A DNA stretch of 64,000 bases from the IMG/VR virus record IMGVR_UViG_3300009499_000296. One strand, given 5' to 3'. The position numbers and the translations under genes are program-made. This DNA is from an uncultured virus (IMG/VR IMGVR_UViG_3300009499_000296). Its lineage: Duplodnaviria > Heunggongvirae > Uroviricota > Caudoviricetes. Below are positions 122 to 64,000 of the stretch, one piece after another; positions within the stretch are counted from its first letter, which is position 1, and each line of letters starts with the position of its first letter. The notes below the pieces were generated by a model, which was given only the letters and a program-made list of their open reading frames with translations, had not been told where the DNA came from and did no database searches.

Positions 122-712
122 TTGAGGAAGACAGACGCTATGCGCAGGAATGGAGGAGGCTCGTTGAAAGAGAGACAGGTCCAGCGGGAAGTTACACTCT
201 CAGTTAAGGCTTGGGGCGGATACTCTGCTTGCACTCAAGACGCCACTGTGTGTCCTAAGTGTAAGCACATGATTGTTCCCTCTCGAGGAAGGCCAGACTT
301 CTTCTGCTATCTTGGAAGATATGGCTTCGTCGTGGAGGTAAAATCTGCCGCACTCAACTTTTCCTTCTCTGACCTCGGAGAGAAGCAGAGAGAGTGGGGC
401 CAGTGGTTCGTGATGGATAGGCACTCGGACTGGTACTTGTGGCTCTCTATGGGGACTAGGCTGAATCACCCCGAGTACCCCAGACGCACTTGGCTCATAC
501 CGCTTAGGGACTTCCTAGCAGTCGAGGCGATTGTCCGGGAATACCAAAAGTCAATCCCCTACCAAGCAGGAAAGGGGCACAATGTGGAGATGCAGCTGCG
601 GCATATAGATGCGGTCCACCTGTTAGCCCCTTATGAGCTGGAGCGGCGTGACGGTGTTTGGTGGTTGCCTGTGTGTCATGCGTTGTCGGATAAAATCGAG
701 AGACCGTTATAA
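122..712 (+). CDS. PD-(D/E)XK nuclease, Holliday-junction-resolvase/RecU-like (true start probably downstream of 122)
   Basis: GRPDFF...VVEVKS motif, preceded by CxxC. Confidence 0.55.
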   Translation: MRKTDAMRRNGGGSLKERQVQREVTLSVKAWGGYSACTQDATVCPKCKHMIVPSRGRPDFFCYLGRYGFVVEVKSAALNFSFSDLGEKQREWGQWFVMDRHSDWYLWLSMGTRLNHPEYPRRTWLIPLRDFLAVEAIVREYQKSIPYQAGKGHNVEMQLRHIDAVHLLAPYELERRDGVWWLPVCHALSDKIERPL

Positions 713-735
713 GATCGCTCAACAGGAGGTATGAG

Positions 736-1056
736 ATGTCCGCAAAGTGCAAGGTCTGTGGAACGTGGGTTTTTGACGAGGACGGCCAGTGCTACGGCAC
801 GGAGTTTCCCAAGGGTAGCGGCGAGTGGGTTTGTAATGAGCTGGCCTGTCAGGAGGCTGCCGAGTCCCAAGGTGAACTTCTCAGATACTTAAGGGTTGCC
901 ATTAGCGAAGCCTATCATAATCTATTGGCCGATGCGGAGGGTAAGAAGAGGCCGTCTGCTAGTGAACCACTTGATGCCCTTCGCTCTGTATTGAAGGAAA
1001 TCCGCATATACCAGGAGTCAAAATGTGAACAAACTAACGATTGTGCCAGTTTCTGA
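736..1056 (+). CDS. hypothetical protein with N-terminal Cys cluster
   Basis: AGGAGG RBS, ATG start, packed operon. Confidence 0.6.
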   Translation: MSAKCKVCGTWVFDEDGQCYGTEFPKGSGEWVCNELACQEAAESQGELLRYLRVAISEAYHNLLADAEGKKRPSASEPLDALRSVLKEIRIYQESKCEQTNDCASF

Positions 1057-1741
1057 AATTATCCCTTGGAGCACTGCCGACCTGGCAAAAGCTGGAACGA
1101 ACCTGGCTCAGGCCCTGCTCTTCGTTGCAGAGAAGACGCTCGAGCAGGACTCCCCCGACTTTCGGAAGGACTACACCGGGGCAGAGAGGGACGCTATGGT
1201 GAGCCAGCGGGCCCTCAAGCTCCACAACCTCATGGAGCTGGCAATGGACGCTGCCGGGCAGGAGCTGGTAGAGTCCCTCCAGGAAAATGGAGCCTTCCAT
1301 CCGGACCTGAGAGGGGACAGCCAAGAGCTGGTGGACGAACTGCTCACCAAGGGAGATCAGTACAAGCGAAGACAAGGGTGGTATATAGTCAACGTGGTGT
1401 TCCCTAAAGCCAAGGAACTGGGCATCAACGTAGAGGCGTGGAAAGAAGAGACCAGCTACGCCAAGTTAAGAGAACTTACAGCAGACTTCCGGTTCATCCT
1501 GGAGGACAAGGAAGTCAGCGAGAGTGAGCGAGAGGACGTGTTCCTCAATCTGGTGGGATTGTCCACCAAGAGAGTCACAGAGATCCGCGAAGCCAGGATG
1601 CTTCGGGGGCCCAGCGAATTTACCGTTGCCGAGCAGAAGAGAGAGGATGGCTACGAGTGGCGTATCCCCTGGCTTTCTGCCGACACACGCGATTGGGCCT
1701 TGCGGAAGTTGCAACCCTGGGTAAAGAGGGAGAAAATATGA
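1025..1741 (+). CDS. hypothetical protein
   Basis: 238-aa ORF overlapping both neighbours. Confidence 0.65.
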   Translation: MNKLTIVPVSEIIPWSTADLAKAGTNLAQALLFVAEKTLEQDSPDFRKDYTGAERDAMVSQRALKLHNLMELAMDAAGQELVESLQENGAFHPDLRGDSQELVDELLTKGDQYKRRQGWYIVNVVFPKAKELGINVEAWKEETSYAKLRELTADFRFILEDKEVSESEREDVFLNLVGLSTKRVTEIREARMLRGPSEFTVAEQKREDGYEWRIPWLSADTRDWALRKLQPWVKREKI

Positions 1742-1992
1742 CTTTGTGGCACGCACTGAAACGGTGGTTTGGATTGAGGCCAACTCAGCAGCAGGCTGTT
1801 ATGTGTAAGCGTTGCCATAGACTCTTGGGTTATATTGAGGGCGGTATCTTCTTGCCTGTTGACACGAAGGTAGAGTGCTACATCACCTGGTATCCACTGG
1901 TCATGGTGAGATGCCTCTTGTGCAGCAAGCAGTATGAGATCCTTCTGCCCAAGTATGCGGATGCGCTTAGAGAAGAGGAGGAGGATGGCTGA
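1738..1992 (+). CDS. small Zn-ribbon-like protein
   Basis: ATGA overlap with upstream stop; two CxxC pairs. Confidence 0.5.
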   Translation: MTLWHALKRWFGLRPTQQQAVMCKRCHRLLGYIEGGIFLPVDTKVECYITWYPLVMVRCLLCSKQYEILLPKYADALREEEEDG

Positions 1993-2179
1993 GGTGATGT
2001 GTTCAGTTACAGACTGCCTGTACCAAGACGACGACAAGTGCACCAGGCCCGTTGTGTTCATTGTGCGCGGTGAGACCTACCCTGGCCTGACTGGGTGTGC
2101 CAGTTGGGTGCCTCGTGGTGCTCAAGACGGGGAGGAGGACGATGGGTATGCAGGATCTTATGGCCAAGCTGATTGCTGA
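1985..2179 (+). CDS. small Cys-containing hypothetical protein
   Basis: GGAGG RBS; CSVTDCLY...C...C pattern. Confidence 0.5.
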   Translation: MAEVMCSVTDCLYQDDDKCTRPVVFIVRGETYPGLTGCASWVPRGAQDGEEDDGYAGSYGQADC

Positions 2180-2393
2180 AGTGGTGGCGGAGCGTGAACG
2201 CCAAACTGCAATGTGGGGAGAGCCAGAGCATGATAACTTCGTGTGGCTGGCCATCCTTGCCGAGGAACTGGGGGAGGTCTCCGGGGCAGCGCTTGAGGGA
2301 AGTAGCGTCAACATCCGAAGGGAGATTATCCACGTTGCTGCGGTTGCTCTGGCCTGGCTTGAGTGCATAGAGACTCGTTCCGGGAGGGGGTGA
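2142..2393 (+). CDS. MazG-like nucleotide pyrophosphohydrolase
   Basis: LAEELGEV...REIIHVAAVA motif; GGAGG RBS. Confidence 0.75.
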   Translation: MGMQDLMAKLIAEVVAERERQTAMWGEPEHDNFVWLAILAEELGEVSGAALEGSSVNIRREIIHVAAVALAWLECIETRSGRG

Positions 2394-2438
2394 CGTGGCG
2401 GCAAAGTTCTCGCGGCCATGTGTACGTGTACAGAGAAC

Positions 2439-2466
2439 TTGACATCCTGAGCTTTTGTGGTATAAT
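2439..2466 (+). promoter_or_regulatory. sigma70-type promoter
   Basis: TTGACA-N16-TATAAT with TG extension. Confidence 0.75.
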
Positions 2467-2625
2467 GATGAGAAAAAAAACAGCTTCGTCCGAGCTCATA
2501 AAGCCACCACAAGACAGGCCCTTTCTGTCTGGGCCTCCCGCCTCTTTGCTGTTGTGGTGGCAGCGACGGGACGAGGAGGCTGGGAGACTCAGACAGAAGG
2601 GGCCTTCACTATTTAGGAGGAAACA

Positions 2626-3413: not shown

Positions 3414-3659
3414 ATGCAATGTGGAAAGGGCCATCAACTTATAACGGCAACACAAGAGGTGACGACATTTTACCCGGACTCCGAACCATTCGAGGCTGAC
3501 GTTGAGGAGGACAGTGGGGTTGACGAGATTCGCGCCTACGTCTCTATTGGTATCCTCTGGTGTCCAGAGTGCAATGAAATAGTACATGTCTGGATAGAAG
3601 AGCCCCATGTGTCAACAGGAGCTGGAGGGGGCATACGACAACACAAGGAGGAAAGATGA
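3414..3659 (+). CDS. hypothetical protein
   Basis: AAGGAG RBS; CxxC. Confidence 0.55.
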   Translation: MQCGKGHQLITATQEVTTFYPDSEPFEADVEEDSGVDEIRAYVSIGILWCPECNEIVHVWIEEPHVSTGAGGGIRQHKEER

Positions 3660-5262: not shown

Positions 5263-5345
5263 ATGAATGAGACGAAAATTGAGTACATATCTGTGCCCTG
5301 TTAGACGGCAGAGTATGGCAAGAATTTCCATGCGACAACGGATGA
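5263..5345 (+). pseudogene. remnant of a phage Gp37/Gp68 (DUF5131)-like gene
   Basis: N-terminal MNETKIEY joined out of frame to C-terminal ALLDGRVWQEFP. Confidence 0.55.
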
Positions 5346-9635: not shown

Positions 9636-11359
9636 TTAGTTACCTCCTGTCTTATCACAGATACAAAGTGGCTAATCCAACTCCTTAGTTTAGCAGGGCT
9701 GTTGGGGAAACTCTCCTGATATTCTAGGGCAGCCCTTTCTACCCTCTCTGCGTGAGCACGATAGTCCTCTAACGTATCCTCCCAGTCCTCGGCGTCTCTT
9801 GCAGCACTAGGGCCAGCCGAGTACCCGTAGGCCAGCCACCGCCAGCTGTCCCTACGCTCGTAGGGAAGAATACTCCTAACTTCAACCAGGTAGTCCACAA
9901 CGAACCTGATCATACAATCGGGGTCAGTGGGGCTGCCATGCCCAAAGGCGTCCCAGGTTTTGATCATGGACTGCCCTAACCCCCAGGCCCCAGCAGACGA
10001 GCAGGCCAGCCGGTCAAAGGCACTCTCGCATTTGACCAATCCCGCCACTAGACACCAGGGGATTTCAGGTGTCTGGTACTTCAGGTACAACTCCCTGTAG
10101 GGCGGCCCCTCCGATGGATGGCCAAACCTCGCGCCCTCTTCAGCCCGCCAGTCCATCAACTCTTGAACCTCCGCCAAGGAGCCCTCAACCAGGTCGATGT
10201 CGAACCCGCCAACTGCCCGGAGCATCGCTAGTCTCTCCGCTGAGGGATTGACGGCTGTCACCGTGTGGCCAAGGCCACCGTGCACCTTCATGGCATCGTC
10301 GTCGCTCTGGCCGACCGTACTACGGAACGCTCCGATGTAGTTCCGCAGTGCCTCGTACCACTGCCAATCGGCTTCCTGCCGTGTGTCCATCTGGGGCAGG
10401 AGCACATAGTGAGACCGGTACCCATCTTCTTGCTCCTCCCAGCCCTGGCCTACGATGTAGTTGCCATACTGTTCCCTGTCGGGCCACACGTCGAAGCTCT
10501 CCCACATTTCGAGTCCGTCGAACAAGAAGACCGTAGCCCCAGCGATGTAGTCATCCTCCTGCAAATACTTGTCGTACCACCCCAGTTGTGGCAGGAAGAC
10601 ATCCATTCCCCCGAAGGAGTGGTAGCCGCCTTCTCCGCCGGGGTCCCAGTGGGCGGCCCCCGAGTCTACCCCGAACTCAGTGATAACGATGTCGGGAAGC
10701 TCGCTGGGAGATAGAGCATCTTCCAGTTGGGCGCGCATCTTTCGAAATCGCAGGGTAAAATACCCGCCAACCTCCGGCTGGATATTGGGATCGTCGGGAT
10801 ACCTTAGGAACTCAGAGTCCATGCGCGGTGCGCAGTACTCGTGGAGTCCCCACAGACCGCCCCAGAGACGTAGCTTTCTTGCTAGCTCATGGACCCTCGG
10901 ATCGTCCCAGTAGACGATCCGCCCTGTCTCGGGGTGCAATTCGTCAGGGCACCCTACAGACCAACTTCCGGCAACGTAGGGGATGCCCAGCTTCCTCAAC
11001 TCCTCCACGAGTTCTAGCTGGAACTCGACGTACTCCCAGCACCGACCACCATGAGGGTTGATTTCATTGTATACCTCCATGGTATCCACCAGTCCCTCTT
11101 GGCACTGGCGGCCCAGAGTACAGTCGGCTATCTCGCGAGCTATTCTGGCAGCATCATTGAACCTTTGGTCGTCTGGCTCGTAGTGATGCCTGCCAATAAC
11201 CAGCGGGTCATACGGACACCCCTGAAGCACATCGACGGCACTGACATCGATCAGTTTGATAATCCGAGGCCTTACAGTCCAGATGAAGCCCCGCATAGCA
11301 TTCAGGTCGGACAGCCGCTGAATTTGAACTCCCAACTTACTTTTTCTGCATTGGGCCAT
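9632..11359 (-). CDS. endolysin: N-terminal GH-A-like TIM barrel plus C-terminal lytic transglycosylase (SLT)
   Basis: YNE...LHEY...IVITEFG in the N-terminus; KCESAFD...SSAGAWGLGQ...YSAG in the C-terminus. Confidence 0.75.
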   Translation of the reverse strand: MAQCRKSKLGVQIQRLSDLNAMRGFIWTVRPRIIKLIDVSAVDVLQGCPYDPLVIGRHHYEPDDQRFNDAARIAREIADCTLGRQCQEGLVDTMEVYNEINPHGGRCWEYVEFQLELVEELRKLGIPYVAGSWSVGCPDELHPETGRIVYWDDPRVHELARKLRLWGGLWGLHEYCAPRMDSEFLRYPDDPNIQPEVGGYFTLRFRKMRAQLEDALSPSELPDIVITEFGVDSGAAHWDPGGEGGYHSFGGMDVFLPQLGWYDKYLQEDDYIAGATVFLFDGLEMWESFDVWPDREQYGNYIVGQGWEEQEDGYRSHYVLLPQMDTRQEADWQWYEALRNYIGAFRSTVGQSDDDAMKVHGGLGHTVTAVNPSAERLAMLRAVGGFDIDLVEGSLAEVQELMDWRAEEGARFGHPSEGPPYRELYLKYQTPEIPWCLVAGLVKCESAFDRLACSSAGAWGLGQSMIKTWDAFGHGSPTDPDCMIRFVVDYLVEVRSILPYERRDSWRWLAYGYSAGPSAARDAEDWEDTLEDYRAHAERVERAALEYQESFPNSPAKLRSWISHFVSVIRQEVTK

Positions 11360-17174: not shown

Positions 17175-17990
17175 CTAATGGGGAAATCTAAAAATCCTCT
17201 TCCTTACCGCTTCCAAAGCATCCGTAATGCCCACACTATCAGCAACCGCACGAACGTAGGAAGCTGTACGAGTGACAACGTCAGTCATCCCCACGTCATC
17301 CGAAACAGTGCGAACATAAGAGGCAACCGTGCTTATCGCATCAGTGATTCCCACTGCATCCGCCACAAGAACAGTCAGCGATGTGGTCAGTGCGTCGGTG
17401 ATCCCGACAGCATCCGTCAGAATGATGTACCACCGGGGAGCTATCACCGCATCTGTAATACCCACATTCTCACTTACGGCGCGAATGTAAGAGGCAACCC
17501 GAGTGATGGCGTCAGTTACCCCTATGTTGTCAGGCACCGCACGCACATAGGAAGCAACTCTGCTTATTGCATCTGAGATACCCAGGGCGTCCGCTAGGAG
17601 GACGGTCAGGGAAGTAGCCAGGGTGTCGGCTATTTCCACATCGTCTGTGAGAGTTCGCAGGTAGGATACCAAGAGGGCGACAGCATCCGTCAGGCCCACG
17701 TCGTCCGCTACAGCGCGACTGTAGGACACGATACGAGCAATCGCATCGGCAATCCCCACATTGTCGGCCAAAATCACGGCTAGACCTACGCTTAGTACAT
17801 CCGATATCCCTACGTTGTCGGATACGATCCGTGTCAGGAAAGTCTGGGCCAGTACCCCGCTGTACATCCAAGCAATGTGCTGCCGATCCGCCTGTGATAT
17901 AGTGCCATCGGGTGTTACAGGTGCCAAGATATACGGTGCCAGGAGCTGAACGGACGATGCTCGCTTTGATCGTGAATCAAGATTTGCCAT
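17175..17990 (-). CDS. virion protein with ~19-aa tandem repeats
   Basis: (D)xVGITDA...YxR repeat. Confidence 0.7.
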   Translation of the reverse strand: MANLDSRSKRASSVQLLAPYILAPVTPDGTISQADRQHIAWMYSGVLAQTFLTRIVSDNVGISDVLSVGLAVILADNVGIADAIARIVSYSRAVADDVGLTDAVALLVSYLRTLTDDVEIADTLATSLTVLLADALGISDAISRVASYVRAVPDNIGVTDAITRVASYIRAVSENVGITDAVIAPRWYIILTDAVGITDALTTSLTVLVADAVGITDAISTVASYVRTVSDDVGMTDVVTRTASYVRAVADSVGITDALEAVRKRIFRFPH

Positions 17991-23622: not shown

Positions 23623-26600
23623 TCTGCAAACAGCCTGCTCCCTACTCTCTGGGATAGCCTGGCGGGACCGTAGCTAAGCCCAATATCGTTCACGACGTAG
23701 GTCGTTCCTCCCAGCGCGAATTTGTCCTCCGGCTCAGTCTCCAACCTTGCCCTCTCGGTGAGGTATCCCCTCTGCTCCGACTCCTCCCTGGACATGCGCT
23801 GGATAATCTTGGCGTCGTCCAAAAGTTCTTCTTCCGTGTTCAAGTCGGGATTGTTCACCTCCAGAAACCGGTAGCCATAAGCAGCTAGCGTCTCGGGATG
23901 TACGTAGAAGACGTACTCTTCGCTCGTTACCAGAACTACACTGGCAATACCGCGGTCATCCAGATTCCTGGACGTTTCGTGCAGGTCAGAGTAAGTCCCC
24001 AGATCGTCCCTGGTGTAGAAGCGGGAGAACTCCAGGGAGGCGTCGCTCCTCTCCAGCCACCACAGTCTCCGTTGTCGGATGAGGTCTTGGACGGCTTGCT
24101 GGCCAGTCATACCCGAAATGTATCCGAACCAAGGCTCGCGCTCGTACAGTTCGGGGATAGCGCTGGAATAGGAGTATGTGTAAGTGAGCGCACCTTCCTC
24201 CCCCGCATTGAGCAACCTCAATCCCACGTATCCTGCGTTCTCGTAAGTCGTGTCGTGGAAAGCCCAGACGAACTTGTCGTCGCACCACACCGAACAGAAC
24301 TCCTTCCAGACGTTTACCCGCCACACGTGCTGGCCAGTGATGTCGAAGTCTATGGCCACCCTCTCTAGAACGCTTAGTCCCCCTGCGAGGTTACAAAGAG
24401 CAACGAAGGGGTTCCCGCCGTTGTTGTAAATGGTCAGCTCGTAGGCACTCTGGGAGGCCCTGGGAAGGGAAAATTGTCCAGCAGTGATCTCCGTGGCGGA
24501 GCGGAACACTAAGCCCCCTCCGGCGTAGGGATCGTCGGGAATAGTCACGTCAACTTCTATCTGGAAGTGAGTGCGGGTAGAGGTGACCAGAGGCACAGCC
24601 AGGTCCCGATAGGAGTTGGCTGCAACCTCCAGGGTTCCACTCCCTGATGCTTGAGTCGTATCCCTGAAGCTCGTCACGCCTGCCCGATAGCAGACGTCCT
24701 TCAAGAGCCAGTCTACGCTGAAATCCTTCCCCAGAGAGTAGACCTCCATGAAGTCAAATTGCACTGGAGCCTCGACGTACCAGTAGACCGGTGTGTCCTT
24801 AGAGTGAGACGTAGGAGTAGTAGAGTAGGCTCCCCTTCCCCGGACGGTGTAGGCTGTGGTTGCGCCTGGAGCTTGGGAGAAATCCTCCGTGGGATAGATC
24901 TTGTAATCAGAGTAGGACTCGATTTCGTATACCTCGTCCTCTGCCACCTCCTTAGGCCAGATCTCGAATGCTGTGTCCTTCGTGATGTCTGCGGAGACAG
25001 ATTTCTCAAGAACGAGATAGTTAGTCTTGTTCCCACTTGCAGGAACAGTATCTAGAATCTCAGAGGTGAATCCCATTCCCTCACCGCCTGTGATTTTGAG
25101 CATGTATCCGTTGTACTCATCGGTCGTCCAGCCGTGGGAACTCGGGGCAGTGAAGATCTTACCATAACCCCAGAGCTCGTACCCATGGGCTTGCGCAGGA
25201 CAATCGGTCCCCCAACTCCAGGTCAGGTAGAGAGTGTGGTGGCCGGTATCATCAACCATTCTCCGCTTATCCTTCCGATACCAATCATCCTGGCGCAGTA
25301 TGACGTAGAGCCCATTCATCTCATCGTCCGCAAAGTATGTGTCCTCGTCATGGATCTGGCTCTTGGTGGCATCGCAGTCATAACCGTCCGCCGTCCCTTC
25401 GTGCATGGGGAAAGCGTTTCCGCTGTCAGAGGCGACTTGGGTGAGTTCCAATCTACAATGTGCCAGGTCGTAGGCCGACCAGTCCTCGTCCGCGTCCTTC
25501 AGGTATTCTACGGTGGAGTCTGCATCTGCCGTCCCTGAAAGGAAGGGGACATTGAAATAACTGGTGCAGTTTCTCACTACCCCGCCCCCATCCAAATAGA
25601 CCCGGGTGCCGTCTGGGTGTAAGACAGCTTCACTTCCTCCAGCTCCTCGCTCTGCCACGTGAAACCCGGGGTCATGGACGAGCCCATTGTACCCAGCGTA
25701 TTCTATTGCCTCGTTTTCTACGAGAATAACCCCATGCCCTGGGAAGTCCGTAGGGTCAACTACCTCAAAATCATTCTCACCTGAGGCCTTCTGCTCACCG
25801 ACGAGCACCGTTTGCTCGTCTCCAGTGTGTACTGAGGAGTAGATAATTATCTCGTCATCTATTTTGAGCTCCCCTGTGTCGGGAAAGTCTATCACCGTTC
25901 CTACTACGACAGTCTCTACGAGCTCATCATCCCCCTTGTCGGGGTTCCACAGGTCTTGAGTTAGCATAGTGGCGAGTACACCGACGTAGGCTCTAAGTCC
26001 CACGTACCCCTCGTCAGCAGCGTATCTGTCCCCCACGTTTCCCTTAGCTTGGTCTTCTTCGGAGTCCGTGCCGTAAATCTCCGCCTCGATCGCCGGATAG
26101 GGCCTGTCCCACCGGTAAGGGAAGGTCCCTCCCACTTCAGTCCACTGGGTAGCGGAGGCGCTCTTGTAGAAGACCCTGAAGAGCCCGGCAGCGTAGACAA
26201 CAGCCAGGTCATACCAGGTATCGAGACTCCAGGATATCGTCCCTGACTGGCCTACAAACTCCCACACCCCGTCACGCATGTTGTACAGCTTGATGCTGTT
26301 GCTTATGTTACTCGCCAATACGACGGACTTGTAATCCTTGTCTGTGCAATTCAGGAGGATCCCCGCCTCCCTATTGCCTAAGCCGCCGAACTTGAACTTG
26401 GTCTTGGCTAAGACCCCACCGAGTGTCGTCCAATCCGTGCTATCGATTGCGACCTCTGCGACTGCCGGGGCTCCTAGTTTGATCAGTTGCAGTTCCCCAG
26501 TTTCACTTATATCCCATCCAGTGATCCACTCCGTAAATCCACCGAAGTCATCGAAGGGCTCGAATATCTTACACTGAGAGAAATAGTCGTAAGCCTGCGC

Positions 26601-27971
26601 CGCTCGCCAGTCCAAGAGCTTCTTCATCGCAGCAGAACGAGCCACGATACCTAGCGTGTCCTCGCCATAGCTCTCGCCACTCAGGACGCTGTCTACTCCG
26701 AATACACTCAGTTGGACGTAATCGGAGACCTTACCATCGTCCCACCCGGCCTCCAGTGTGAGCTCTGCGCCCTGGCGAATATTGGGGTCTTCATCGTAGC
26801 TTCCATCGGCATTGGCAATCTGTAGGTTAAGTGTCGCCGCCGCATTTGCACCTGGGGAGCTGTAGTCCCACTGATGGATGTCGGAAGTGATGGTCGTCTT
26901 CTTGGAGGCCGCATCCACACCCACCAGGTTCGTAGCCGTGGCTCGGGCAACCTTCTGGCAAGCCACCAGGTAGATGTAACTTCCGACAACGTAAGCCCTC
27001 ATTCCCACATAGAGGTTATCGGAGTACCTCCACAGAGCATGATGTCTATCCAGTGTCCAGTGCTCACCATCGCCCCGCAGCAAGCACTCGCAATCGAAGT
27101 CGTAGGCATCTGAGCCAGGCCTAACGTACCTTGCACACAGGAAGAGCTGATCGTTCACCACACTTAGAGAGTAGGGTATGAACACTGAGGAAGGCATCGA
27201 GGTATCAGCGGGATTGGAGACGACATCAATGGGCAGCACACTCACTGGGTCAGACCACACGCCGTTATGGTACTTCACCATCACTGCCCGGCCGTCATCG
27301 TGGTCCATAACGATGATGTAATCCACGCTGTTAAAGGTCACTGCTGAGATAAATGTCGCGCTATACAAAGCCCCTCGGCCCTTTCCGGTGAAGATGTGAG
27401 GACCTGTCTCCCAGGCCCAGGAACCGTCGTAGTGGCAGCGGTAGAGCCTATGACCAGCTACGCCACTAACCTTGACATACGCATAGATAGTGTTCAAGTC
27501 AACAGCAGTTAGACCGACACTCTCTATTGTGCCCCCGGCCCAGCCCAAAGAATAAGCGATCCCCCAGCCACCATTCTTCTGGCGGTAGGAAATTGAGTTG
27601 GTCCCATCCGGTTGGTAGAAGATACGGACTGTCCCACTACTCTCGGCTATCCCGCATCGGCAGCCACTCTCAGCATAGAACGTCAGGGCCTGTGCCTTAG
27701 CCCAGTCCCAGTCAGTAAGGTCGGTAATCTTCTGGTGGTAGAGTCTTCCATTCCCCTTGGCGATGCAGCGGTGGATGTACCCGCTGGCATCCTCGCAGGA
27801 AGCACCCCGGATTGAGTTAGCCCAAGTCAGGTCCCCCTCAGCCGCGCTGCCTAAAGAACAGTCAAACACCGTGTCAAACTGCAAGCGTAAATCCCTGATG
27901 GTGACCCGAGATAGAGGCGTGCGTTCACTGCTGGCCTGTGCAGTTTGTAAGTCAGCGGATAAAGATCTCAC
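23616..27971 (-). CDS. large tail tip/hub protein
   Basis: 1451 aa, second gene after the tape measure. Confidence 0.7.
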   Translation of the reverse strand: MRSLSADLQTAQASSERTPLSRVTIRDLRLQFDTVFDCSLGSAAEGDLTWANSIRGASCEDASGYIHRCIAKGNGRLYHQKITDLTDWDWAKAQALTFYAESGCRCGIAESSGTVRIFYQPDGTNSISYRQKNGGWGIAYSLGWAGGTIESVGLTAVDLNTIYAYVKVSGVAGHRLYRCHYDGSWAWETGPHIFTGKGRGALYSATFISAVTFNSVDYIIVMDHDDGRAVMVKYHNGVWSDPVSVLPIDVVSNPADTSMPSSVFIPYSLSVVNDQLFLCARYVRPGSDAYDFDCECLLRGDGEHWTLDRHHALWRYSDNLYVGMRAYVVGSYIYLVACQKVARATATNLVGVDAASKKTTITSDIHQWDYSSPGANAAATLNLQIANADGSYDEDPNIRQGAELTLEAGWDDGKVSDYVQLSVFGVDSVLSGESYGEDTLGIVARSAAMKKLLDWRAAQAYDYFSQCKIFEPFDDFGGFTEWITGWDISETGELQLIKLGAPAVAEVAIDSTDWTTLGGVLAKTKFKFGGLGNREAGILLNCTDKDYKSVVLASNISNSIKLYNMRDGVWEFVGQSGTISWSLDTWYDLAVVYAAGLFRVFYKSASATQWTEVGGTFPYRWDRPYPAIEAEIYGTDSEEDQAKGNVGDRYAADEGYVGLRAYVGVLATMLTQDLWNPDKGDDELVETVVVGTVIDFPDTGELKIDDEIIIYSSVHTGDEQTVLVGEQKASGENDFEVVDPTDFPGHGVILVENEAIEYAGYNGLVHDPGFHVAERGAGGSEAVLHPDGTRVYLDGGGVVRNCTSYFNVPFLSGTADADSTVEYLKDADEDWSAYDLAHCRLELTQVASDSGNAFPMHEGTADGYDCDATKSQIHDEDTYFADDEMNGLYVILRQDDWYRKDKRRMVDDTGHHTLYLTWSWGTDCPAQAHGYELWGYGKIFTAPSSHGWTTDEYNGYMLKITGGEGMGFTSEILDTVPASGNKTNYLVLEKSVSADITKDTAFEIWPKEVAEDEVYEIESYSDYKIYPTEDFSQAPGATTAYTVRGRGAYSTTPTSHSKDTPVYWYVEAPVQFDFMEVYSLGKDFSVDWLLKDVCYRAGVTSFRDTTQASGSGTLEVAANSYRDLAVPLVTSTRTHFQIEVDVTIPDDPYAGGGLVFRSATEITAGQFSLPRASQSAYELTIYNNGGNPFVALCNLAGGLSVLERVAIDFDITGQHVWRVNVWKEFCSVWCDDKFVWAFHDTTYENAGYVGLRLLNAGEEGALTYTYSYSSAIPELYEREPWFGYISGMTGQQAVQDLIRQRRLWWLERSDASLEFSRFYTRDDLGTYSDLHETSRNLDDRGIASVVLVTSEEYVFYVHPETLAAYGYRFLEVNNPDLNTEEELLDDAKIIQRMSREESEQRGYLTERARLETEPEDKFALGGTTYVVNDIGLSYGPARLSQRVGSRLFAEW

Positions 27972-28949: not shown

Positions 28950-29076
28950 GCAAAACAGAGAATGTAAATTCGACTTGACAAATCAGGGAGACGACCCGTA
29001 GTTTATCTCATACGTTGTCGGATGATTTGACATCCTGAAAAAAGGTGGTAGAATGTAAGCGGAAAGGAGGTGCGAG

Positions 29077-37968: not shown

Positions 37969-38895
37969 CTACCTCGCCCCCGAGTAAGTCTGGATGTATT
38001 TGCGCACCCAGATGTCTATGTCCCTATTCTTGCGCACCCACTTCCGTCCGTTGTCGGATAACTTTTTCCTCAGTCTCCCGTCCTCTACCAGCAGGGATAT
38101 GGCCTCGTCCCAGTTTCCCTTGACTAACAAGCCATTGTGCCTCTGATTTACGACCCTACGGTAAACGGGGTGATCAGAGCACACTGGAACGCAGCCCTGG
38201 CTCATTCCCTCCAAGGCCTTCACACCGCTCTTAAAGAGATTGAAACTATCGTCGTTCAACGGACAGAGCAGGATATCTATTTCCCTAATGGTATCGGGAT
38301 ACTCCTCGTACTTCTTCCAGGGGATAAACTTCACGTCTAAATCCCTCAAGTACCCTGGGAAGTATCCACCCACCACGATTCTTACGTTGTCGTATCTCTC
38401 CTGTATTCTTCTTAACGGTTCCTCAACTTGTCGCCAGTCATCCAGATGCGAGGCCCCGCCCACCAGCCCCACTGTCAGGGGGTGGTCCTTGGGTCTGTAT
38501 GCCCACAGAGAAAAGTCCAAACAGTTAGGCAGCACCACCGCATTGAGTATCTTCTTCTTCAGGGCTGGCGTGGAGACCGTATTGACGTGAGCTAGCCGAG
38601 CCATGCAGAGCGGATCGAACTTGGAGGCCGCAAAGTGCCCATAGGGATCATCGTCTGCATCGTGGACGATCGTTTGCCCCCCAGCCCTCAGGAGGGAAAC
38701 CAGGTGCTCCAGGACCTTCTCCGGGCCCATCCAGTTGCGGAACACCAACACGTTCCACTGGGATACTCTGTAGTCCTTCATATCCAGGGAGGGTATCACG
38801 TCAGCCTTGATGCCCCTCCTCCTCATGGCAGCAGCCGGGACGAGGCTTCTGTAACTCTCCTGGTGGTTCCCATCCACGACGAAGCATACGCTCAA
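37969..38895 (-). CDS. GT-B (GT4-like) glycosyltransferase
   Basis: HDADDD, VSTPAL, VLPNCLD, DILLCPLNDDSFNLFKSGVKALE; TTG start overlapping the upstream TGA. Confidence 0.85.
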   Translation of the reverse strand: MSVCFVVDGNHQESYRSLVPAAAMRRRGIKADVIPSLDMKDYRVSQWNVLVFRNWMGPEKVLEHLVSLLRAGGQTIVHDADDDPYGHFAASKFDPLCMARLAHVNTVSTPALKKKILNAVVLPNCLDFSLWAYRPKDHPLTVGLVGGASHLDDWRQVEEPLRRIQERYDNVRIVVGGYFPGYLRDLDVKFIPWKKYEEYPDTIREIDILLCPLNDDSFNLFKSGVKALEGMSQGCVPVCSDHPVYRRVVNQRHNGLLVKGNWDEAISLLVEDGRLRKKLSDNGRKWVRKNRDIDIWVRKYIQTYSGAR

Positions 38896-43151: not shown

Positions 43152-43178
43152 GATTACCTCCTTACGTTGTCGGATACA

Positions 43179-51703: not shown

Positions 51704-51706
51704 TCT

Positions 51707-53892: not shown

Positions 53893-55515
53893 TTACCTCC
53901 ATGGATGCCACCCGATAAGGGCCTGGAGTTCAGCGATCCTATCCAACCAGGTGTATTTCTCATGGACTAACTCGCTGCCCTCTCGGGCTATACGTTGTCG
54001 GATACTGTCGTGCTCCAAATAGTAGTCAATCTTGCGCACCAAATCATCGTAATCCGACCATGTTTCAAGGTGTATGCCCCGCTTAAACTCTTCCTCGATG
54101 CCAGGGTAGTCGTGGGTCACGTAGAAAGCACCACTGCCCATCGCGCGAAACAGGCGGTTAGATGTGTAGCGGCGCAAAGAAAGGTGGGATTGTCCAACGG
54201 CGATCTTGCAAGTCCTGTAGCAGGCTGCTTCTTGGCACCAATCCAGCCTCTTGGTAGGAAAGGGCCAGCCAGCACCGTAGACACCGAAATTGTCGCCGTA
54301 CCTTTGCCGAAGAAATTTCACCATATCCAAGCGGTGATCCGAGAGTGGGAAGTGACCTGGGTAATTGTTGCCAAGGAAGACAATCGGTGGGTAGCTATCC
54401 CCTGCATGGCTCCAAGGATGAAGAAGGTGATGCCACCAGCCAATCTGTAGGTAGTCTGCCTGTATACCACCCTTGCGGAACTCCTCTACCCAGTCCATGT
54501 TAGTAACCAGCGTCCAATCAATCTCCTTGCCCAGCTCGAAGTACCATCCAGGAATAGGAGCTCGCACGTCACCTGACCAGTTGACAATCACCCGTCCCTC
54601 ATCTTTCATCAGGCGAGCCGTTCTCACATCTATAATACCTGGGGTCTGCAACTGCATAAATACCAAACTGGGGTCCCATTGGTCACAGGCAATAATCGCC
54701 TCCTCCCTGACCCTTGGCCCCAGCTTTCTCCAGTCTAACTGCTTGTATTCCCCCATTGACCTCAAGGCTCTCTCTAAGCCCGGTTGGTTTTCGCCTGGTA
54801 CATTTAGAGCTATATGGAGTATCCTTCTTCTAAATCCTGTAGGTTCATCAATCCCTTTTCTCAAGGAGTAGAACTTCTCGCTATCAGGATTTACCCCCTC
54901 AGGGTTATTTATGTCTCTGAGTTTGTCTTTGGTTGCTAGGTCATGTACTCGGCAATCTCTCAACCCTACAACCTCGTAGCCCATCTCCATGATGCGACAA
55001 CTTAACTCGCAGTCCCCTCCATAAGTGTAGAACATGTCGGACCACCACCCCGCTCTATCCCCCAGTTCCCTACGAGTCATCCCCTTGTTGGCGTAGACTC
55101 TTCCAAATACGTGGTCAAACCGATAGTCGGGGCTATACAGGTCGAAGGCAAAAGCCACCTGCCCCACTTCGGGATGGGCCTTCATGTAATTGTACGCCCG
55201 GGCAATGCAATCACCCTGTACTTCATCATCGTCATTGATGTGAACGCAAAAGGGAGCTCTTGCCAGCCTCCATCCAGCAGTGAAGGCCCGACAGGCTCCC
55301 GTGAGTTTGCCCTGTTCCACAACCAGCACATCTTCTTGTTGATGCAACCACGCCAGCGTACCATCTGTACTTCCAGCGTCTACGACTATAATCTCATAGG
55401 GAATGTCTTCCACCGAGTCCCTAACGCAATAGATACACGACTTGAGTGCTTCCAGCCTATTCCAGGTGCCGAGGATGATACTTATCTCCACGTCACCTAT
55501 TTGGTTTCCACCCAT
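53893..55515 (-). CDS. fused GT2 plus CgeB-like GT-B glycosyltransferase
   Basis: VVDAGSTDGT, NDDD, YGGDCE; C-terminal TSNRLFRAMGSG...KIDYYLEH. Confidence 0.88.
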   Translation of the reverse strand: MGGNQIGDVEISIILGTWNRLEALKSCIYCVRDSVEDIPYEIIVVDAGSTDGTLAWLHQQEDVLVVEQGKLTGACRAFTAGWRLARAPFCVHINDDDEVQGDCIARAYNYMKAHPEVGQVAFAFDLYSPDYRFDHVFGRVYANKGMTRRELGDRAGWWSDMFYTYGGDCELSCRIMEMGYEVVGLRDCRVHDLATKDKLRDINNPEGVNPDSEKFYSLRKGIDEPTGFRRRILHIALNVPGENQPGLERALRSMGEYKQLDWRKLGPRVREEAIIACDQWDPSLVFMQLQTPGIIDVRTARLMKDEGRVIVNWSGDVRAPIPGWYFELGKEIDWTLVTNMDWVEEFRKGGIQADYLQIGWWHHLLHPWSHAGDSYPPIVFLGNNYPGHFPLSDHRLDMVKFLRQRYGDNFGVYGAGWPFPTKRLDWCQEAACYRTCKIAVGQSHLSLRRYTSNRLFRAMGSGAFYVTHDYPGIEEEFKRGIHLETWSDYDDLVRKIDYYLEHDSIRQRIAREGSELVHEKYTWLDRIAELQALIGWHPWR

Positions 55516-55577
55516 GCTCCATTCACCCCCTTAAATGTAGTCGGGCGATGGCCAAATGTAGTCGGATGATGGCCAGG

Positions 55578-56300: not shown

Positions 56301-57811
56301 CTACCTCTCCTCACACCCCTGTTCGCTCTCCTTATTCCTCTTCTAGCCCAAAGGTACGGAAGATTGTCCTGTCTCGGTTCTTTCATCTGCCTCAAAGGGC
56401 GGATCATCCAGGCACTCATCATCAGACATGCCACCAGGTCCTGCGCTATCTTGTCGTCGGGAAGATCGTATTTCCGAGCTTGGGATTTCATTCCCCGAAT
56501 GAAGGGGAAGGACATACCCCGCAGCTCTAACACCATTCTCAGAGCATTGAGGAATCCGAACTTATCCCTTCTGAAGTTTAGCGGCTCGACTATGATTCCC
56601 TCTCTCTCGAAGACGAGCTCGTCCATGTACTTCTGCGTTCCGGTGGTGTCAAACCCACTGTGCCCAGGATACTTCTCCAGGCCATACTTGAAGGATGTCA
56701 TCCACGGCCCGATGCTACCGTTCCCGTACACCCAGTCAAGATAGACTAGTTCCGCCGGCTCCGCCGTTACGTCCCAGCTCATTACTACGCCCGATCCGCG
56801 TTTGGGGGGGTTCCCCGAGCCCGGATCGCCTGCCGTGATATAAACGTGCCCGTCCTCGTAGGGAAGTTCCCATCTCACACAGCCTATTCTTTCCACCTCC
56901 TGGTAGTCAGCTCCCATGACGCCATGCTCGATGAGGTCGTCCATCTGCTCCATCATTTCTACGCTCTCGCAGTTGTCGTAGTGACGCGCAGGGAGGAGCC
57001 TCCCCCTTACCTCGGGCCATTCACACTCAATGTAGGTCGGGACGTCCTCTTCCGGGGTGTCCGCTATTATCAAGCGCAACTGCTCCTCGGTCACGAAGGG
57101 GTTGTGCTTGGCCAGTATCTTGATGGAGATATGATCCGGGTTGTTCCCAAGCCCCCGCTCGTACCTCTCCTTGAGTACATCATCTGTCCCAGGGACGGTA
57201 GTGATGGTAAGAAGGCACAGTCTGGGAACTTGTGTACGTTGTCGGATGCCGCGAAGGCGGCTCCTCAGTGCCTTGACCGTCTCAGCAAAGTCTGCGATCA
57301 GAGCACCCTCGTCGATGTTGCCCTGGTCGAACTCCTCCCCCTCAAGGTAGTCCAGGTACTCCGGTTTAGCCGTCAGGAACTCCATCGTGGACCCGTTCCG
57401 GAACCTGATCTGGGGATAAGGGGCCGCTACAACCCTATCAAGGAGGTGCTCAAGTTTGTCGTTGTTGACGATCTCGTCCCTCAAGAAATCGTACATCAGT
57501 CTGGCCTGCCGCCCAATCGGAGCGAGATTGACGAACTTGAAATAGCTCTTGGTCAGACAGTTTGTAAACCCGAAGGCAGCCATGTTCGTAGTTTTCCCGC
57601 TGGCCCAAGAACCTAACCAAAACTGGTTAGGTTGAGGAGCATAGTACATGGGCTTGACAGCAGGGAGGAACTTGCGCCCCCAGTACCACTCCAGGAGAAT
57701 GTCCACATCCCCCGTCTGTTGGGCAGCTGCCAGTATCGCTATGTCATCGGGTTTCATGGCTCCGAGATGAGTGTCAAGGAGCTCATGTTGGAATGTCTGT
57801 GGAAATTGCAA
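56297..57811 (-). CDS. terL: terminase large subunit
   Basis: Walker A ASGKTT, Walker B NIDEG, HNP, nuclease GDPG...DTTG...QDLVACL. Confidence 0.85.
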   Translation of the reverse strand: MQFPQTFQHELLDTHLGAMKPDDIAILAAAQQTGDVDILLEWYWGRKFLPAVKPMYYAPQPNQFWLGSWASGKTTNMAAFGFTNCLTKSYFKFVNLAPIGRQARLMYDFLRDEIVNNDKLEHLLDRVVAAPYPQIRFRNGSTMEFLTAKPEYLDYLEGEEFDQGNIDEGALIADFAETVKALRSRLRGIRQRTQVPRLCLLTITTVPGTDDVLKERYERGLGNNPDHISIKILAKHNPFVTEEQLRLIIADTPEEDVPTYIECEWPEVRGRLLPARHYDNCESVEMMEQMDDLIEHGVMGADYQEVERIGCVRWELPYEDGHVYITAGDPGSGNPPKRGSGVVMSWDVTAEPAELVYLDWVYGNGSIGPWMTSFKYGLEKYPGHSGFDTTGTQKYMDELVFEREGIIVEPLNFRRDKFGFLNALRMVLELRGMSFPFIRGMKSQARKYDLPDDKIAQDLVACLMMSAWMIRPLRQMKEPRQDNLPYLWARRGIRRANRGVRRGR

Positions 57812-58051: not shown

Positions 58052-58093
58052 CAGTAGCCTCCTTCGTGGGTGCATGGACTTTAATAGACACAA

Positions 58094-59035: not shown

Positions 59036-59351
59036 ATTTCTCCTCGACTATTGCCCTGAGATAGTCCCTCATTCTCTCGCCTTGATACATCAGCAGCCGC
59101 AACTTCCTTGCCTTGCTCTCTGCTATTCTCCTTCCAGGTACAAGATACCCGTGGTGAGCAGCGTCGTGACAAGTGAGACAGAGGGTGACTACGTTGGTTT
59201 CAATGTCTAATCCCCCGCTCCCCCTGCTCTTGATGTGGTGAGGAGATAGCCCCATCGCCCCTCCGCAATTCAAACACTTCCCGTCACGATGTAGAACCAT
59301 TTCTCGTAACTTCAGCCAATCTGCCCCCTCGCTTCTATCCGACAACATCAA
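59022..59351 (-). CDS. HNH endonuclease (probably packaging associated)
   Basis: RDGKCLNCG...HHIKSRGSGG.D...NVVTLCLTCH. Confidence 0.88.
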   Translation of the reverse strand: MMLSDRSEGADWLKLREMVLHRDGKCLNCGGAMGLSPHHIKSRGSGGLDIETNVVTLCLTCHDAAHHGYLVPGRRIAESKARKLRLLMYQGERMRDYLRAIVEEKYERL

Positions 59352-59894: not shown

Positions 59895-59923
59895 TTCTCT
59901 TGCACCTCCTTACGACAACGCAA

Positions 59924-60109
59924 TCACCACCAACCCATTACACGACCAGCCACGATAAGCGTCAATGCAAAGTTGACCAGCAAGACGAACTGCACCTCGA
60001 ACAGTGCTTCCCCATCAATAACCAGCAAGCTACTGCTCTCAAAAAGTGCCCAGAGAAACTGCGCCCCGCTGAGGATTATCAGAGCCAAGGCAGTACCCCT
60101 GACAAACAT
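59924..60109 (-). CDS. small membrane protein
   Basis: two hydrophobic segments; GGAGG RBS. Confidence 0.45.
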   Translation of the reverse strand: MFVRGTALALIILSGAQFLWALFESSSLLVIDGEALFEVQFVLLVNFALTLIVAGRVMGWW

Positions 60110-60865: not shown

Positions 60866-60874
60866 CAATCTATA

Positions 60875-60938: not shown

Positions 60939-61156
60939 TGGTGTCTATTGGGCTCTCCTCTCACGAGAGTCGCTGAGAGAGGCTCACCCGTGGGGCATAG
61001 AGGCGCTCACACCTGGAGTGAGGCGGCCAGGGGCTGATCCCCCCGTTTGCCTTGGCTTCTATTGCGGGTGCAAGGGTGTGTGGCTGGTACGGTATTGACC
61101 GTACCTACATCACTCAGGGCCTCTCGTGAGGGGAGAGACATAGAAAGGAACGAGCA

Positions 61157-61378
61157 ATGACCCGCAAGTACATCAATGGGATGGTAGCAGCCCTTCGGCG
61201 AAATGGGCTGGTGACACTGGACACAGAGAGCATCTTCCAGAACCTGCGCCAGTTAGAGCAGTATCACGGTGTCACCATCACCGATGCCGTGATACGCAGA
61301 GAGCTAGGCCGACTGGGGATTCCCTCTTTTCGGGGAGTGTCTCAGGGCTCTCGTCGGATGGCACACTCGCCTGCATAG
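61157..61378 (+). CDS. hypothetical protein
   Basis: GAAAGGA RBS. Confidence 0.6.
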   Translation: MTRKYINGMVAALRRNGLVTLDTESIFQNLRQLEQYHGVTITDAVIRRELGRLGIPSFRGVSQGSRRMAHSPA

Positions 61379-61923
61379 CATCCGACAATGCATAACCGAA
61401 TAGCAAACAGGCCATCTGCCCTTCATTGCCACGCTCTCCAGGGAGATAGATGAAGGGCAGTTGCGTGTCTGTTATTCAACATGAAAGGAGAGAAGCGTGT
61501 ACGAAGTCTTTGATGTCGTTAGCAAGAGGAGACTTGCCACCGCCACGTCTTTGTGGATGGCAGAGATAGAAGCCCGTCACCGGACACTGAAGGGGCAGGT
61601 TGTGGGTATCAGGTACATCCCCCTGTTGTATAGCCAATACAAAAGGCCATCTGCTGCCAGAAGGCGCTAGTAGAAAGGGGAGAGACGTGATAGCGTTCTC
61701 TATTGAGTTGGGAAATCCAAGCAACACTATAACAGTCTACGATGTCGTAGACGCAATATGGTACGAGAAGAAGGTGTATCCAGTCACCCATGAGGAGGCG
61801 CTGGATGCAGCAGAGAGGCTAGGGGTAAAGCCCTGCTTTAAGGGTCCCTTCCTAGCCTCCACACTGTGTAATGATGGCAGCCCACGGAAGTGGGCCAATA
61901 ATGGTATCGGCTAGGAGGCATAC

Positions 61924-62571: not shown

Positions 62572-62630
62572 GACGGGATGGCAGTTCCTGTCTCTCTATC
62601 ATCCGGTGGACTGCCATCCTGTTCTTTTTT
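62572..62630 (+). terminator. intrinsic terminator
   Basis: ACGGGATGGCAGTTC...GGACTGCCATCCTGT followed by a T-run. Confidence 0.6.
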
Positions 62631-62865
62631 CCAAGCCTCTGCTGCGCTTCACCCACAGAGCAGACCTGCTCTAGGGGGTCAGGTCAGCCGCCAGACTCCC
62701 AAAGGGCCACTAGCTTCTTTCGGGCCCGAATGAAGGTGCTGATGTTCTGTGTAATCACAGCAGCCTGCATCTCGTCCAATAGCTTCTTGACTCTCTTGTC
62801 CATGTTACACCTGTAACCTCGCACGGGGTGGAAACACCCCTCAACTGTTACACCTGTAACACTCA

Positions 62866-62941
62866 TTATAGCACACTTAAGGCGTCAAGTCAAGTGAATA
62901 CGTGAGATAAACTTGACAAAACCGAATATCTGTGCTATAAT
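62866..62941. promoter_or_regulatory. divergent sigma70 promoter pair
   Basis: minus strand TTGACT-N17-TATAAT; plus strand TTGACA(62913)-N17-TATAAT(62941). Confidence 0.75.
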
Positions 62942-63087
62942 ATGGGGTACAAAGAGACAGTTGCTAGATACCTTATTGCGACAAGTTGCAATAAGAGGGG
63001 GGAAAAATAATACCTCTGTGTGGGGTAGTGGGTATCCGCTGTAAAACTAGGTCGGTTTCATCCGACAACGCATGAAAGGAGTGTTCG

Positions 63088-63324
63088 GTGAATAAAGCTC
63101 TACAGAATGCCCTTGAGCAACTGAAAGGCAGCATTAGGGAGAAGCGCGGGGTCGCAATATTCCCCTACGAGGCCCAAGCCCTGCTGGATGAACGGACTGC
63201 CCTGCGGGACGTGTGCAAGGCACTTAGCGCCTGGTTTGACCAAGCAGGGGTGCCAATGCGGGGCTACAATCCTATCGTAGAGAGGGCCCGTGTCGCTATT
63301 GCCAAGTCATCTGACAACGTATAG
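63088..63324 (+). CDS. hypothetical early protein
   Basis: motif plus GAAAGGAG RBS. Confidence 0.65.
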   Translation: MNKALQNALEQLKGSIREKRGVAIFPYEAQALLDERTALRDVCKALSAWFDQAGVPMRGYNPIVERARVAIAKSSDNV

Positions 63325-63338
63325 AAAGGTGAGTAGAA

Positions 63339-63638
63339 ATGAGGTATCAAATCTTCAGTGACGATAAAGTTGGCACATGGGCTGTTCTGTTTGATCGGTC
63401 GCCCTTCTGTTATGGCGAATTGTCGCAAGAGGAGCGGCAAGGGATTGAGGAGATTCTCACGCAGAATAGCCTCATTCGAGACGAGCAGATAGCAGATGCA
63501 ATAACCCATCGCAGTGTGCGGGTTCGGGTAAAGCCGCAATTCTGCCTAACACTCGTTGCACCTAACGCGGCTAGTCGCTACGATGAACTGCCAGGATATA
63601 GCTATTGGGATGATCCTACTCCTGGCGAGGAAAGGTAA
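63339..63638 (+). CDS. hypothetical early protein
   Basis: motif plus GAAAGG RBS. Confidence 0.65.
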   Translation: MRYQIFSDDKVGTWAVLFDRSPFCYGELSQEERQGIEEILTQNSLIRDEQIADAITHRSVRVRVKPQFCLTLVAPNAASRYDELPGYSYWDDPTPGEER

Positions 63639-63716
63639 TACCTCTAAGTGGGCTGGGGTTCTTGGGGTGTGTGAGTGTGACAATTTCATCTGACAACGTA
63701 TGAAAGGAGAAACGGA

Positions 63717-63920
63717 ATGACAGACGCACGCTATTTTGAGTGCCAGACTTGTAGCCAAGTCGTACAGGGCTGGCACGCAGCACACGAGTGGATTCAGTGT
63801 TGCTCCCGTCCCCATTATCATGAAGTCCCGGGGCCGCAGGAGGAGCCGGAGAGGTTCTGGTGCGCATACTGTGGCACAGAGTATGATGGGCATCACGACT
63901 GCCCTAATCCCAGGCTATAG
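63717..63920 (+). CDS. small Cys/His-rich early protein
   Basis: motif plus GAAAGGAG RBS; CxxC pairs. Confidence 0.65.
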   Translation: MTDARYFECQTCSQVVQGWHAAHEWIQCCSRPHYHEVPGPQEEPERFWCAYCGTEYDGHHDCPNPRL

Positions 63921-64000
63921 CTTGCACGGGCTATGTCATCCGACAACATATGAAAGGAGTGAAGGCATGGCTGCTTCGATTATCCCAGCGGCAGGGTCAG

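Follow-up and report, generated by a model that had tools for sequence, protein, structure and literature searches.

A dispersed 16-bp pseudo-palindrome in an uncultured siphovirus and its predicted ParB/KorB-like candidate binder

Mycobacteriophages of Cluster O, which are siphoviruses, carry dozens of 17-bp dyad repeats distributed genome-wide, both between and within genes (Cresawn et al. 2015, PMC4351075). In that description the repeats have a preferred asymmetric spacer without meaningful orientation, lie mostly off promoters, occur in phages in which no integrase was seen, and are left without an explained function. A similar element is present in an uncultured virus of the Caudoviricetes, IMG/VR record IMGVR_UViG_3300009499_000296. 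We analysed 64,000 nucleotides (nt) of its 77,011-bp contig, hereafter the window; 13 kb of the contig lie outside it. The window harbours 21 copies of a 16-bp pseudo-palindrome, YATVCG-ACAA-CGBATR, which is well supported as a real cis-element of this known but unexplained kind. With a probability of about 0.5, and by analogy with described systems, we propose that a phage-made dimer of the ParB/KorB type docks on these sites and dampens early transcription. The sites differ from the Cluster O repeats in their imperfect arms, in the many copies directly before a Shine-Dalgarno sequence (SD), whereas the Cluster O repeats are described as not linked to initiation sites, and in a word that is not constant between the genomes of what is a far more diverged family. 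The Cluster O phages also encode proteins with parB-like domains and a glycosyltransferase block near the head genes (PMC4351075).

KorB of plasmid RK2 and its operator OB offer a second comparison (McLean et al. 2025, PMC11790492). OB sites are also 16 bp long; some sit a few bp upstream of a promoter, with an OB-proximal spacing of 4-10 bp, and others at a distance from all promoters. Close to this, four of the sites described here end 2-7 nt upstream of a -35 box, one in the window, two in the related contig G001 and one in G002. Our candidate binder is likewise predicted to have a KorB/ParB-like DNA-binding fold and to dimerise. KorB is, however, a CTPase sliding clamp locked by KorA, whereas the candidate lacks a CTPase domain, no KorA partner was identified, and its binding to the site is what we infer. 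Of the systems compared, KorB/OB would be the closest in its mode of action, except for the CTPase. Orphan ParB-CTPase proteins are common in phages and their functions are mostly open, according to a survey built on the CTPase domain (PMC12704722), the domain that the window candidate lacks. Our literature search, with subscription journals mostly outside its coverage, found no paper on the palindromes of this family or on a CTPase-less phage ParB, and we regard lineage-specific palindromes across a whole family, together with a CTPase-less ParB-like candidate, as a new twist on a known kind.

Anatomy and placement of the site

The first-pass annotation had described an asymmetric 11-mer. No word in the window is more strongly over-represented (p 2e-15 after Markov-3 correction). 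Nine exact and eight one-mismatch copies are present, 17 in total, against a mean of 0.81 and a maximum of 3 in 100 dinucleotide shuffles. The coordinates given earlier for the nine exact and six of the one-mismatch copies were all correct, and two one-mismatch copies, at 5330 (+) and 38385 (-), had been overlooked. The asymmetry itself does not hold, as flank conservation and comparison of the arms reveal a longer element with dyad symmetry. Among the 17 copies the flanks beyond the 11-mer are kept: position -1 is Y and position +13 is A in 16 copies each, and R occupies +15 in all 17. A 16-bp matrix retrieves 21 sites where about two are expected by chance, and for this reason the three weakest may be chance matches. 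When the right arm is reverse-complemented (YATACG) and compared with the left (YATCCG) over the 21 sites, the two mirror each other at four of six positions, namely 1 (C14/T6 in both arms), 3 (T in 21 and 19), 5 (C in 19 and 17) and 6 (G in 21 and 20). The spacer reads ACAA in 19 of the 21.

Twelve of the 21 sites lie within genes, in agreement with the earlier remark that copies occur inside coding sequence. Since these in-gene sites fall in four strand/frame registers, peptide or codon bias, raised earlier as a possible explanation (IRQR, SDN), was rejected. A hairpin was also rejected. Only 3/21 sites have arms that pair at the variable position, so selection for a hairpin is not apparent and a double-stranded protein site is favoured.

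Eight sites are intergenic. Measured against 79 manually curated start codons of the window, 8/21 sites lie at most 16 nt before a start, compared with 2.1% expected (p 6e-9), and four consecutive site-SD-gene units occupy positions 63059-63952. The same holds across the family, in which 38 of 154 sites from 17 genomes precede an SD and start, the rough expectation being 5. Such positions directly 5' of the SD, the four tandem units, and the sites of G002, which precede similar small genes, would also fit an RNA-level element (a hairpin or a translational operator) or a recombination point for early gene cassettes. We consider this extremely unlikely, given the mismatch of the arms at the variable position (18/21), the occurrence of both orientations before starts, and the sites deep in single-copy structural genes. 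Contigs of the probable source run showed no joints, although contigs alone make this a weak test.

The same annotation had noted that most copies point along local transcription. This is true of 16 of the 21 sites (p=0.027 against 50%), with five antisense, but it does not exceed a strand bias of about 65% (p=0.20). A-rich sub-words such as ACAA, CGACA and GACAAC are already 60-70% co-oriented in the window, in counts that include the sites themselves. Orientation bears on the proposed analogy with the stoperators of Cluster A mycobacteriophages (L5, TipsytheTRex repressor), which are described as more than 20 dispersed, lineage-specific sites at promoters and gene junctions, and further as asymmetric 13-mers, read by a monomer and strictly oriented with transcription, in temperate phages (PMC9283540). 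Classical stoperators, at which a monomeric immunity repressor silences the prophage, would account for some 20 dispersed sites, many at gene junctions, for genome-specific sequences as in immunity groups, and for the 16 co-oriented copies. Spread and junction positions therefore fit the analogy, whereas the dyad symmetry and an orientation not above background do not. Moreover, more than half of the sites are inside genes, no integrase was found among the 78 window open reading frames (ORFs) scanned (64 of 77 kb covered), and the relative with a tyrosine integrase, G003, is the one lacking dispersed palindromes. Five relatives were compared, the other four being 63-81% complete; the tyrosine integrase occurs in G003 only, and no serine recombinase was found in any of the five. 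A stoperator system of the classical type is thus very improbable.

Whether the word belongs to the host was addressed in 151 genomes of the phylum to which the metagenome-assembled genome (MAG) holding the relative L081 belongs. These contain 14 matches in total, at most two per genome and not above a reversed-pattern control, so the motif is not comparably abundant in these chromosomes, though the phylum may not be that of the host. The single-stranded DNA-binding proteins of relatives may point to a host in the Chloroflexota. Binding by a host protein (ParB/Noc-like or a global regulator), with each phage having evolved the word of its own host, could explain why some relatives share or nearly share words, as listed below. 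The absence of enrichment makes this rather improbable, even if a few copies in one unsampled host would escape such a survey. Binding sites for a phage protein, as first suggested, remain the best reading after the register and host-abundance checks.

A candidate binding protein and its proposed role

The best candidate binder that we infer for the 16-bp site is the predicted product of ORF 1025-1741. Site 677 lies 43 nt before ORF 736, the gene that directly precedes ORF 1025-1741. The protein family comprises 186 representatives and is present in the window and in all four matched early regions of relatives (G001, G002, G003 and G005). Close homologues sit on short contigs. The AlphaFold2 model has a pLDDT of 93. 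Chains of P1 ParB bound to DNA make up four of the top five Foldseek rows (E 0.19-0.52), and residues 67-195 align with the DNA-binding domain of KorB (Z 3.9-4.1, root-mean-square deviation (rmsd) 3.5-3.6, 88-93 residues aligned). With hhalign, the C-terminus, represented by 21 sequences, matches the end of chromosomal ParB at E 0.015, compared with 0.19-0.5 for three controls, with a probability of 3%. A homodimer is predicted with a score of 0.80, against 0.00 for the best control; at least 90% of contacts recur between runs, and the pLDDT is at least 82; the mark used for this score was reached by 20 of 30 solved homodimers and by 1 of 23 single chains. The predicted contacts involve both the N-terminal helices and the C-terminal domain. 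In the model no CTPase domain is present, and only long helices occupy the N-terminal position. Dimer and fold are predictions from these models.

In the proposed mechanism, a phage-encoded homodimer would bind the 16-bp double-stranded site. Its subunit may be the 238-aa product of ORF 1025-1741, in which ParB-like DNA-binding and dimerisation domains would be kept and helices forming a dimer arm would stand in place of the CTPase. Alternatively, it may be a complete orphan ParB encoded in the 13 kb outside the window. Made in the replication operon, the dimer would repress promoter-proximal sites by occlusion and act as a road-block at gene junctions, so that early transcription would be dampened while the genome is coated, both by analogy with KorB/OB. 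The palindromes themselves sit beside ribosome-binding sites, a short way upstream of certain -35 boxes, and within genes.

Several observations weigh against this proposal. Contact with a strong sigma-70 promoter was found for only 4/154 sites, all just upstream of the -35 box, with 2 expected, and none of the early promoters of the window overlaps a site. All ParB-like matches of the 238-aa protein are weak, with no Foldseek E of 0.001 or below, VIA Z scores not above those of unrelated rows, and the low hhalign probability mentioned above; searches of Pfam and of PDB sequences with it gave no match. G003 encodes a protein of this family without a genome-wide palindrome, and no dispersed palindrome was found in G012, G015 and G019 (3 of 20 related contigs). 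In G001 a full ParB-like gene, distinct from the homologue of the 238-aa protein, lies two genes ahead of that homologue, so the binder there may be a different protein, the matching position in our contig being outside the window. G002 carries a small CopG-like gene directly behind a site-flanked promoter, which is another candidate.

A ParB profile detected no gene in the 64-kb window, although, as G001 shows, one could sit in the remaining 13 kb. Searches for ParB_N in ten relatives and for HTH_ParB in five gave no match, on contigs all but one of which are incomplete; these blanks are weak, because a custom profile later found the diverged ParB of G001. The A5 profile had no match in ten further fragments, which are 27-48% complete and hence uninformative, and the ESM Atlas gave no usable match for the 238-aa protein. 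The winged helix-turn-helix (wHTH) protein encoded at 43179-43433, named earlier as a possible binder, was rejected. It has homologues in only two other contigs, one of them (G019) without a palindrome, and is absent at that position in L147 and L148.

The same dimer on the same sites might instead anchor, segregate, compact or shield the phage DNA in a parS/Noc-like manner, or organise replication or packaging. The even spread across late genes, far from promoters, and the ParB-like candidate are in line with such a role, and a role of this sort was also what the authors of the Cluster O study inferred for the dyad repeats there (PMC4351075). We consider it unlikely, since the sites are strongly enriched right before SD-start units and a few abut -35 boxes; the ParB_N and HTH_ParB blanks also count against it.

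Palindromes of the relatives and the tape-measure polymerase

The word of the window was not found above the chance level among its relatives. Eighty IMG/VR loci with related major capsid proteins (998 kb, 33-47% capsid identity) contain no exact and 14 one-mismatch copies, about what chance would give, and the three loci nearest to the window (66-67% capsid identity) lack the word as well. An exact 15-letter scan of IMG/VR returned 64 single-hit loci, none with more than three degenerate copies; patterns combining motif and SD had no match in IMG/VR or JGI metagenomes, and searches with the terminase recovered no relatives from IMG/VR or INPHARED. In L148, the nearest of the long relatives, 15 kb contain two copies of ATCCG-GCGC-CGGA, compared with five ATCCG-N4-CGGA arm pairs in 1.02 Mb of background. 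One of the two copies is at the position orthologous to site 38045, and the spacer change alters two residues.

Relatives possess palindromes of their own. Twenty related contigs were examined, the first ten picked partly for a palindrome hint already seen and the second ten for length and tape-measure type. A dispersed palindrome of 12-17 bp was present in 16 of the 20, two of them weak, and in seven of the second ten alone, two weak (Table 1). Most are perfect dyads, unlike the pseudo-palindrome of the window. The same or nearly the same word occurs in the pairs G002/G010, G007/G020, G006/L001 and G014/G016. Site and binder may drift together, so that each siphovirus lineage would have its own 12-17 bp palindrome, one per 2-10 kb. 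Instead of a genome-wide palindrome, G003 has a longer repeat of about 45 nt, in which a hairpin comes after a 13-bp core and whose copies cluster at the ends of the contig (L158, L161; near 783, 1809 and 64577-66704). G003 is the only relative with both an integrase and a stand-alone RNA polymerase (RNAP) gene, and the clustered repeats are candidate promoters or terminators for this polymerase.

The suspicion that the phage carries a virion RNAP is supported by an RNAP-like two-barrel domain at the N-terminus of the 2257-aa tape-measure-position protein. It contains a single DxDxD motif, matched in 26 distinct related loci (L004, L008, L012 and 23 more) and invariant across 27 aligned sequences. 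All top Foldseek rows listed for the model of the polymerase region are RNAP largest subunits (best E 0.011), and structural comparison (VIA) placed the double-psi barrel on M. tuberculosis beta-prime (Z 8.5, rmsd 3.2, 126 residues aligned), with Z 6.4-6.5 for gp96 of P23-45. The model has a pLDDT of 60 and resolves one barrel, not the second. A word-index search with the region found no homologue except itself, and no PDB sequence matched. On the strength of the invariant motif, the Foldseek rows and the barrel match, the domain is probably real, and its activity is a prediction. L075, L077 and L078 have short tape measures without an RNAP-like domain, and G003 has a stand-alone DFDGD gene instead.

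The described counterpart is gp96 of Thermus phage P23-45, a tape-measure protein that likewise has a DxDxD two-barrel domain at its N-terminus (Chaban et al. 2024, PMC10770324). An AT-rich motif ahead of pre-early starts forms the promoters of that enzyme, and P23-45 relatives that lost the fusion also lost the motif (PMC10770324). Members of the present family may already be included in Supplementary Data 4 of that paper, which surveys viral two-barrel polymerases. The palindromes could by this precedent be promoters of the tape-measure-fused RNAP, as also suggested in the first-pass annotation. The polymerase domain itself, the four sites 13-15 nt before consecutive small early genes, and an invariant asymmetric spacer that could supply direction are compatible with this, and G003, whose tape-measure protein lacks the DxDxD motif and which has no dispersed palindrome, is the one fitting case. 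However, the tape-measure ORFs of G014 (cut at 1194 aa), G016 and G013 have no match to the polymerase profile, yet palindromes persist in these contigs, weakly in G013, and in G019 the DxDxD domain is present without a palindrome. The sites are genome-wide rather than confined to pre-early starts and are not co-distributed with the fusion, in contrast to the motif of P23-45. They are mostly in late genes and partly antisense, and the perfect palindromes of many relatives give no direction. Because palindromes occur in relatives without the domain, virion-RNAP promoters are decidedly unlikely.

Other features of the window and significance

Window DNA was found in one run, X1, a DNA run from a subsurface metagenome and the probable source; no RNA dataset containing it was listed. 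Portal, terminase, major head, tail, lysis and O/DnaC-type replication genes are present. The label of the RecU-like gene rests on homology to a G001 gene. The major capsid gene is split by a group I intron (Rfam RF00028, 42199-42533, minus strand), and the stretch 41197-42533 also holds an endonuclease-like ORF (41197-41679) on the strand opposite to intron and capsid gene. Intron-like stretches are common to the window, L148 and L001. Directly upstream of the terminase region lies a shortened tmRNA-like match (58091-58259, minus strand; RF00023, 53 bits, 169 nt), for which ARAGORN made no call.

Glycosyltransferase, epimerase, pyruvyl- and methyltransferase genes form a block at 47500-55515, between terminase and portal, and one more such gene is located in the neck-tail region (37969-38979). 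These genes probably serve virion glycosylation, as proposed for the Cluster O phages. Between the tape-measure and distal-tail-position genes, 28921-29262 contains divergent promoters, of which the plus-strand one drives a membrane-type ORF of 61 aa, possibly a moron for superinfection exclusion. The region 60600-61140 has few genes and many inverted repeats (e.g. arms 60953-60980 and 61110-61137), is flanked by divergent promoters, and is possibly a structured RNA or a genome end region. The early region of G002 (L156:14701-16308) encodes a Ro60/TROVE-vWA protein and a RecA fragment.

A small CRISPR-like array is present at about 46308-46456 (minus strand), downstream of a consensus promoter at 46669-46696, with three 29-nt repeats, two of them degenerate, and two spacers of about 32 nt. 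Its central repeat matches many arrays of the source run and an array in G170, and one of the 151 genomes mentioned above has a CRISPR array within two mismatches of the repeat. The spacers had no match in the loci fetched. The array is possibly a phage mini-array or an RNA anti-CRISPR.

Table 1. Sites and associated features of the window, and dispersed palindromes of related contigs
Feature	Position or contig	Strand	Score or copies	Context
Site	677..692	-	24.9	3' end of RecU-like gene; 43 nt before ORF 736 of the candidate-binder operon; spacer anti-oriented
Candidate binder, 238 aa	1025..1741	+		N-terminal helices; ParB/KorB-like helix-turn-helix region about aa 67-195; ParB-CTD-like beta-beta-alpha end; predicted homodimer
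Site	3632..3647	+	18.4	9 nt before next start codon
Site	5329..5344	+	21.8	Intergenic, 14 nt before start; half-sites swapped (ATGCG-ACAA-CGGAT)
Site	10965..10980	+	15.2 (weaker)	Endolysin gene, antisense; may be chance
Site	17809..17824	-	24.7	Within tail gene 17175-17990
Site	24066..24081	-	22.5	Within 1451-aa tail/baseplate gene
Site	26980..26995	+	22.6	Within 1451-aa gene, antisense
Site	29009..29024	-	27.4 (top)	Intergenic; ends 2 nt before -35 hexamer of sigma-70-type promoter
Promoter-like TTGACA-16-TAGAAT	29027..29054	+		Upstream of 61-aa ORF 29077-29262, hydrophobic N-terminus
Tape-measure-position protein, 2257 aa	29263..36036	-		N-terminal two-barrel RNAP-like domain; DxDxD at aa 643-647; modelled region 33028-35430
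Site	38045..38060	-	22.7	Within glycosyltransferase gene; orthologous position in L148 with same arms, spacer GCGC
Site	38381..38396	-	19.9	Within glycosyltransferase gene
Site	43161..43176	-	25.8	Between wHTH stop and SD of scaffold-position gene; 9 nt before start
Site	53989..54004	-	26.4	3' end of 540-aa glycosyltransferase gene
Site	55553..55568	-	12.5 (weak)	Intergenic; may be chance
Site	57233..57248	-	24.6	Within terminase large subunit gene
Site	59336..59351	+	18.8	Across HNH gene start, antisense
Site	59909..59924	+	11.8 (weak)	Reversed; 14 nt before minus-strand start codon
Site	61379..61394	+	21.3	Immediately after stop of ORF 61157-61378
Site	63059..63074	+	25.4	Unit 1 of four site+SD+start units; about 120 nt downstream of consensus promoter 62913-62941
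Site	63308..63323	+	24.3	Site+SD+start unit 2
Site	63687..63702	+	24.9	Site+SD+start unit 3
Site	63937..63952	+	24.9	Site+SD+start unit 4
TTCAGAT-N3-ATCTGAA	G001		8	
TTCTGCSGCAGAA	G002		24	
CTAKCGMTAG	G004		9	
TTCCG-N3-CGGAA	G005		22-26	
TCCCCCGGGGGA	G006		9	
CTCCAC-N3-GTGGAG	G007 and G020		8 and 5	
CTCGCATGCGAG	G008		5	
CTCCAAGCTTGGAG	G009		8	
TTCTG-N3-CAGAA	G010		4	
TTCCG-N4-CGGAA	G014 and G016		5 and 4	
TGCAC-N3-GTGCA	G017		4	
TCCAAC(W)GTTGGA	G018		7	
Palindromes, weak	G013 and G021		3 and 4	

Ever since they were described in Cluster O, dyad repeats scattered over the genomes of apparently non-integrating phages have lacked an explanation. The present family supplies numerous matched pairs, in which a conserved candidate protein of the replication operon goes with a palindrome that differs between genomes; therefore, binder and specificity code are testable by cross-binding assays without culturing the phage. 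A further-reaching idea, possible but doubtful, is that a CTPase-less, ParB-derived homodimeric clamp serves as a genome-wide self-marking regulator of a large uncultured siphovirus family, its palindrome re-invented in each lineage even within coding sequence, and that it switches off or fences in the transcription begun by the injected tape-measure RNAP. If this were true, the family would constitute a natural library of orthogonal protein-site pairs and would give a first handle on repeats of the Cluster O type.

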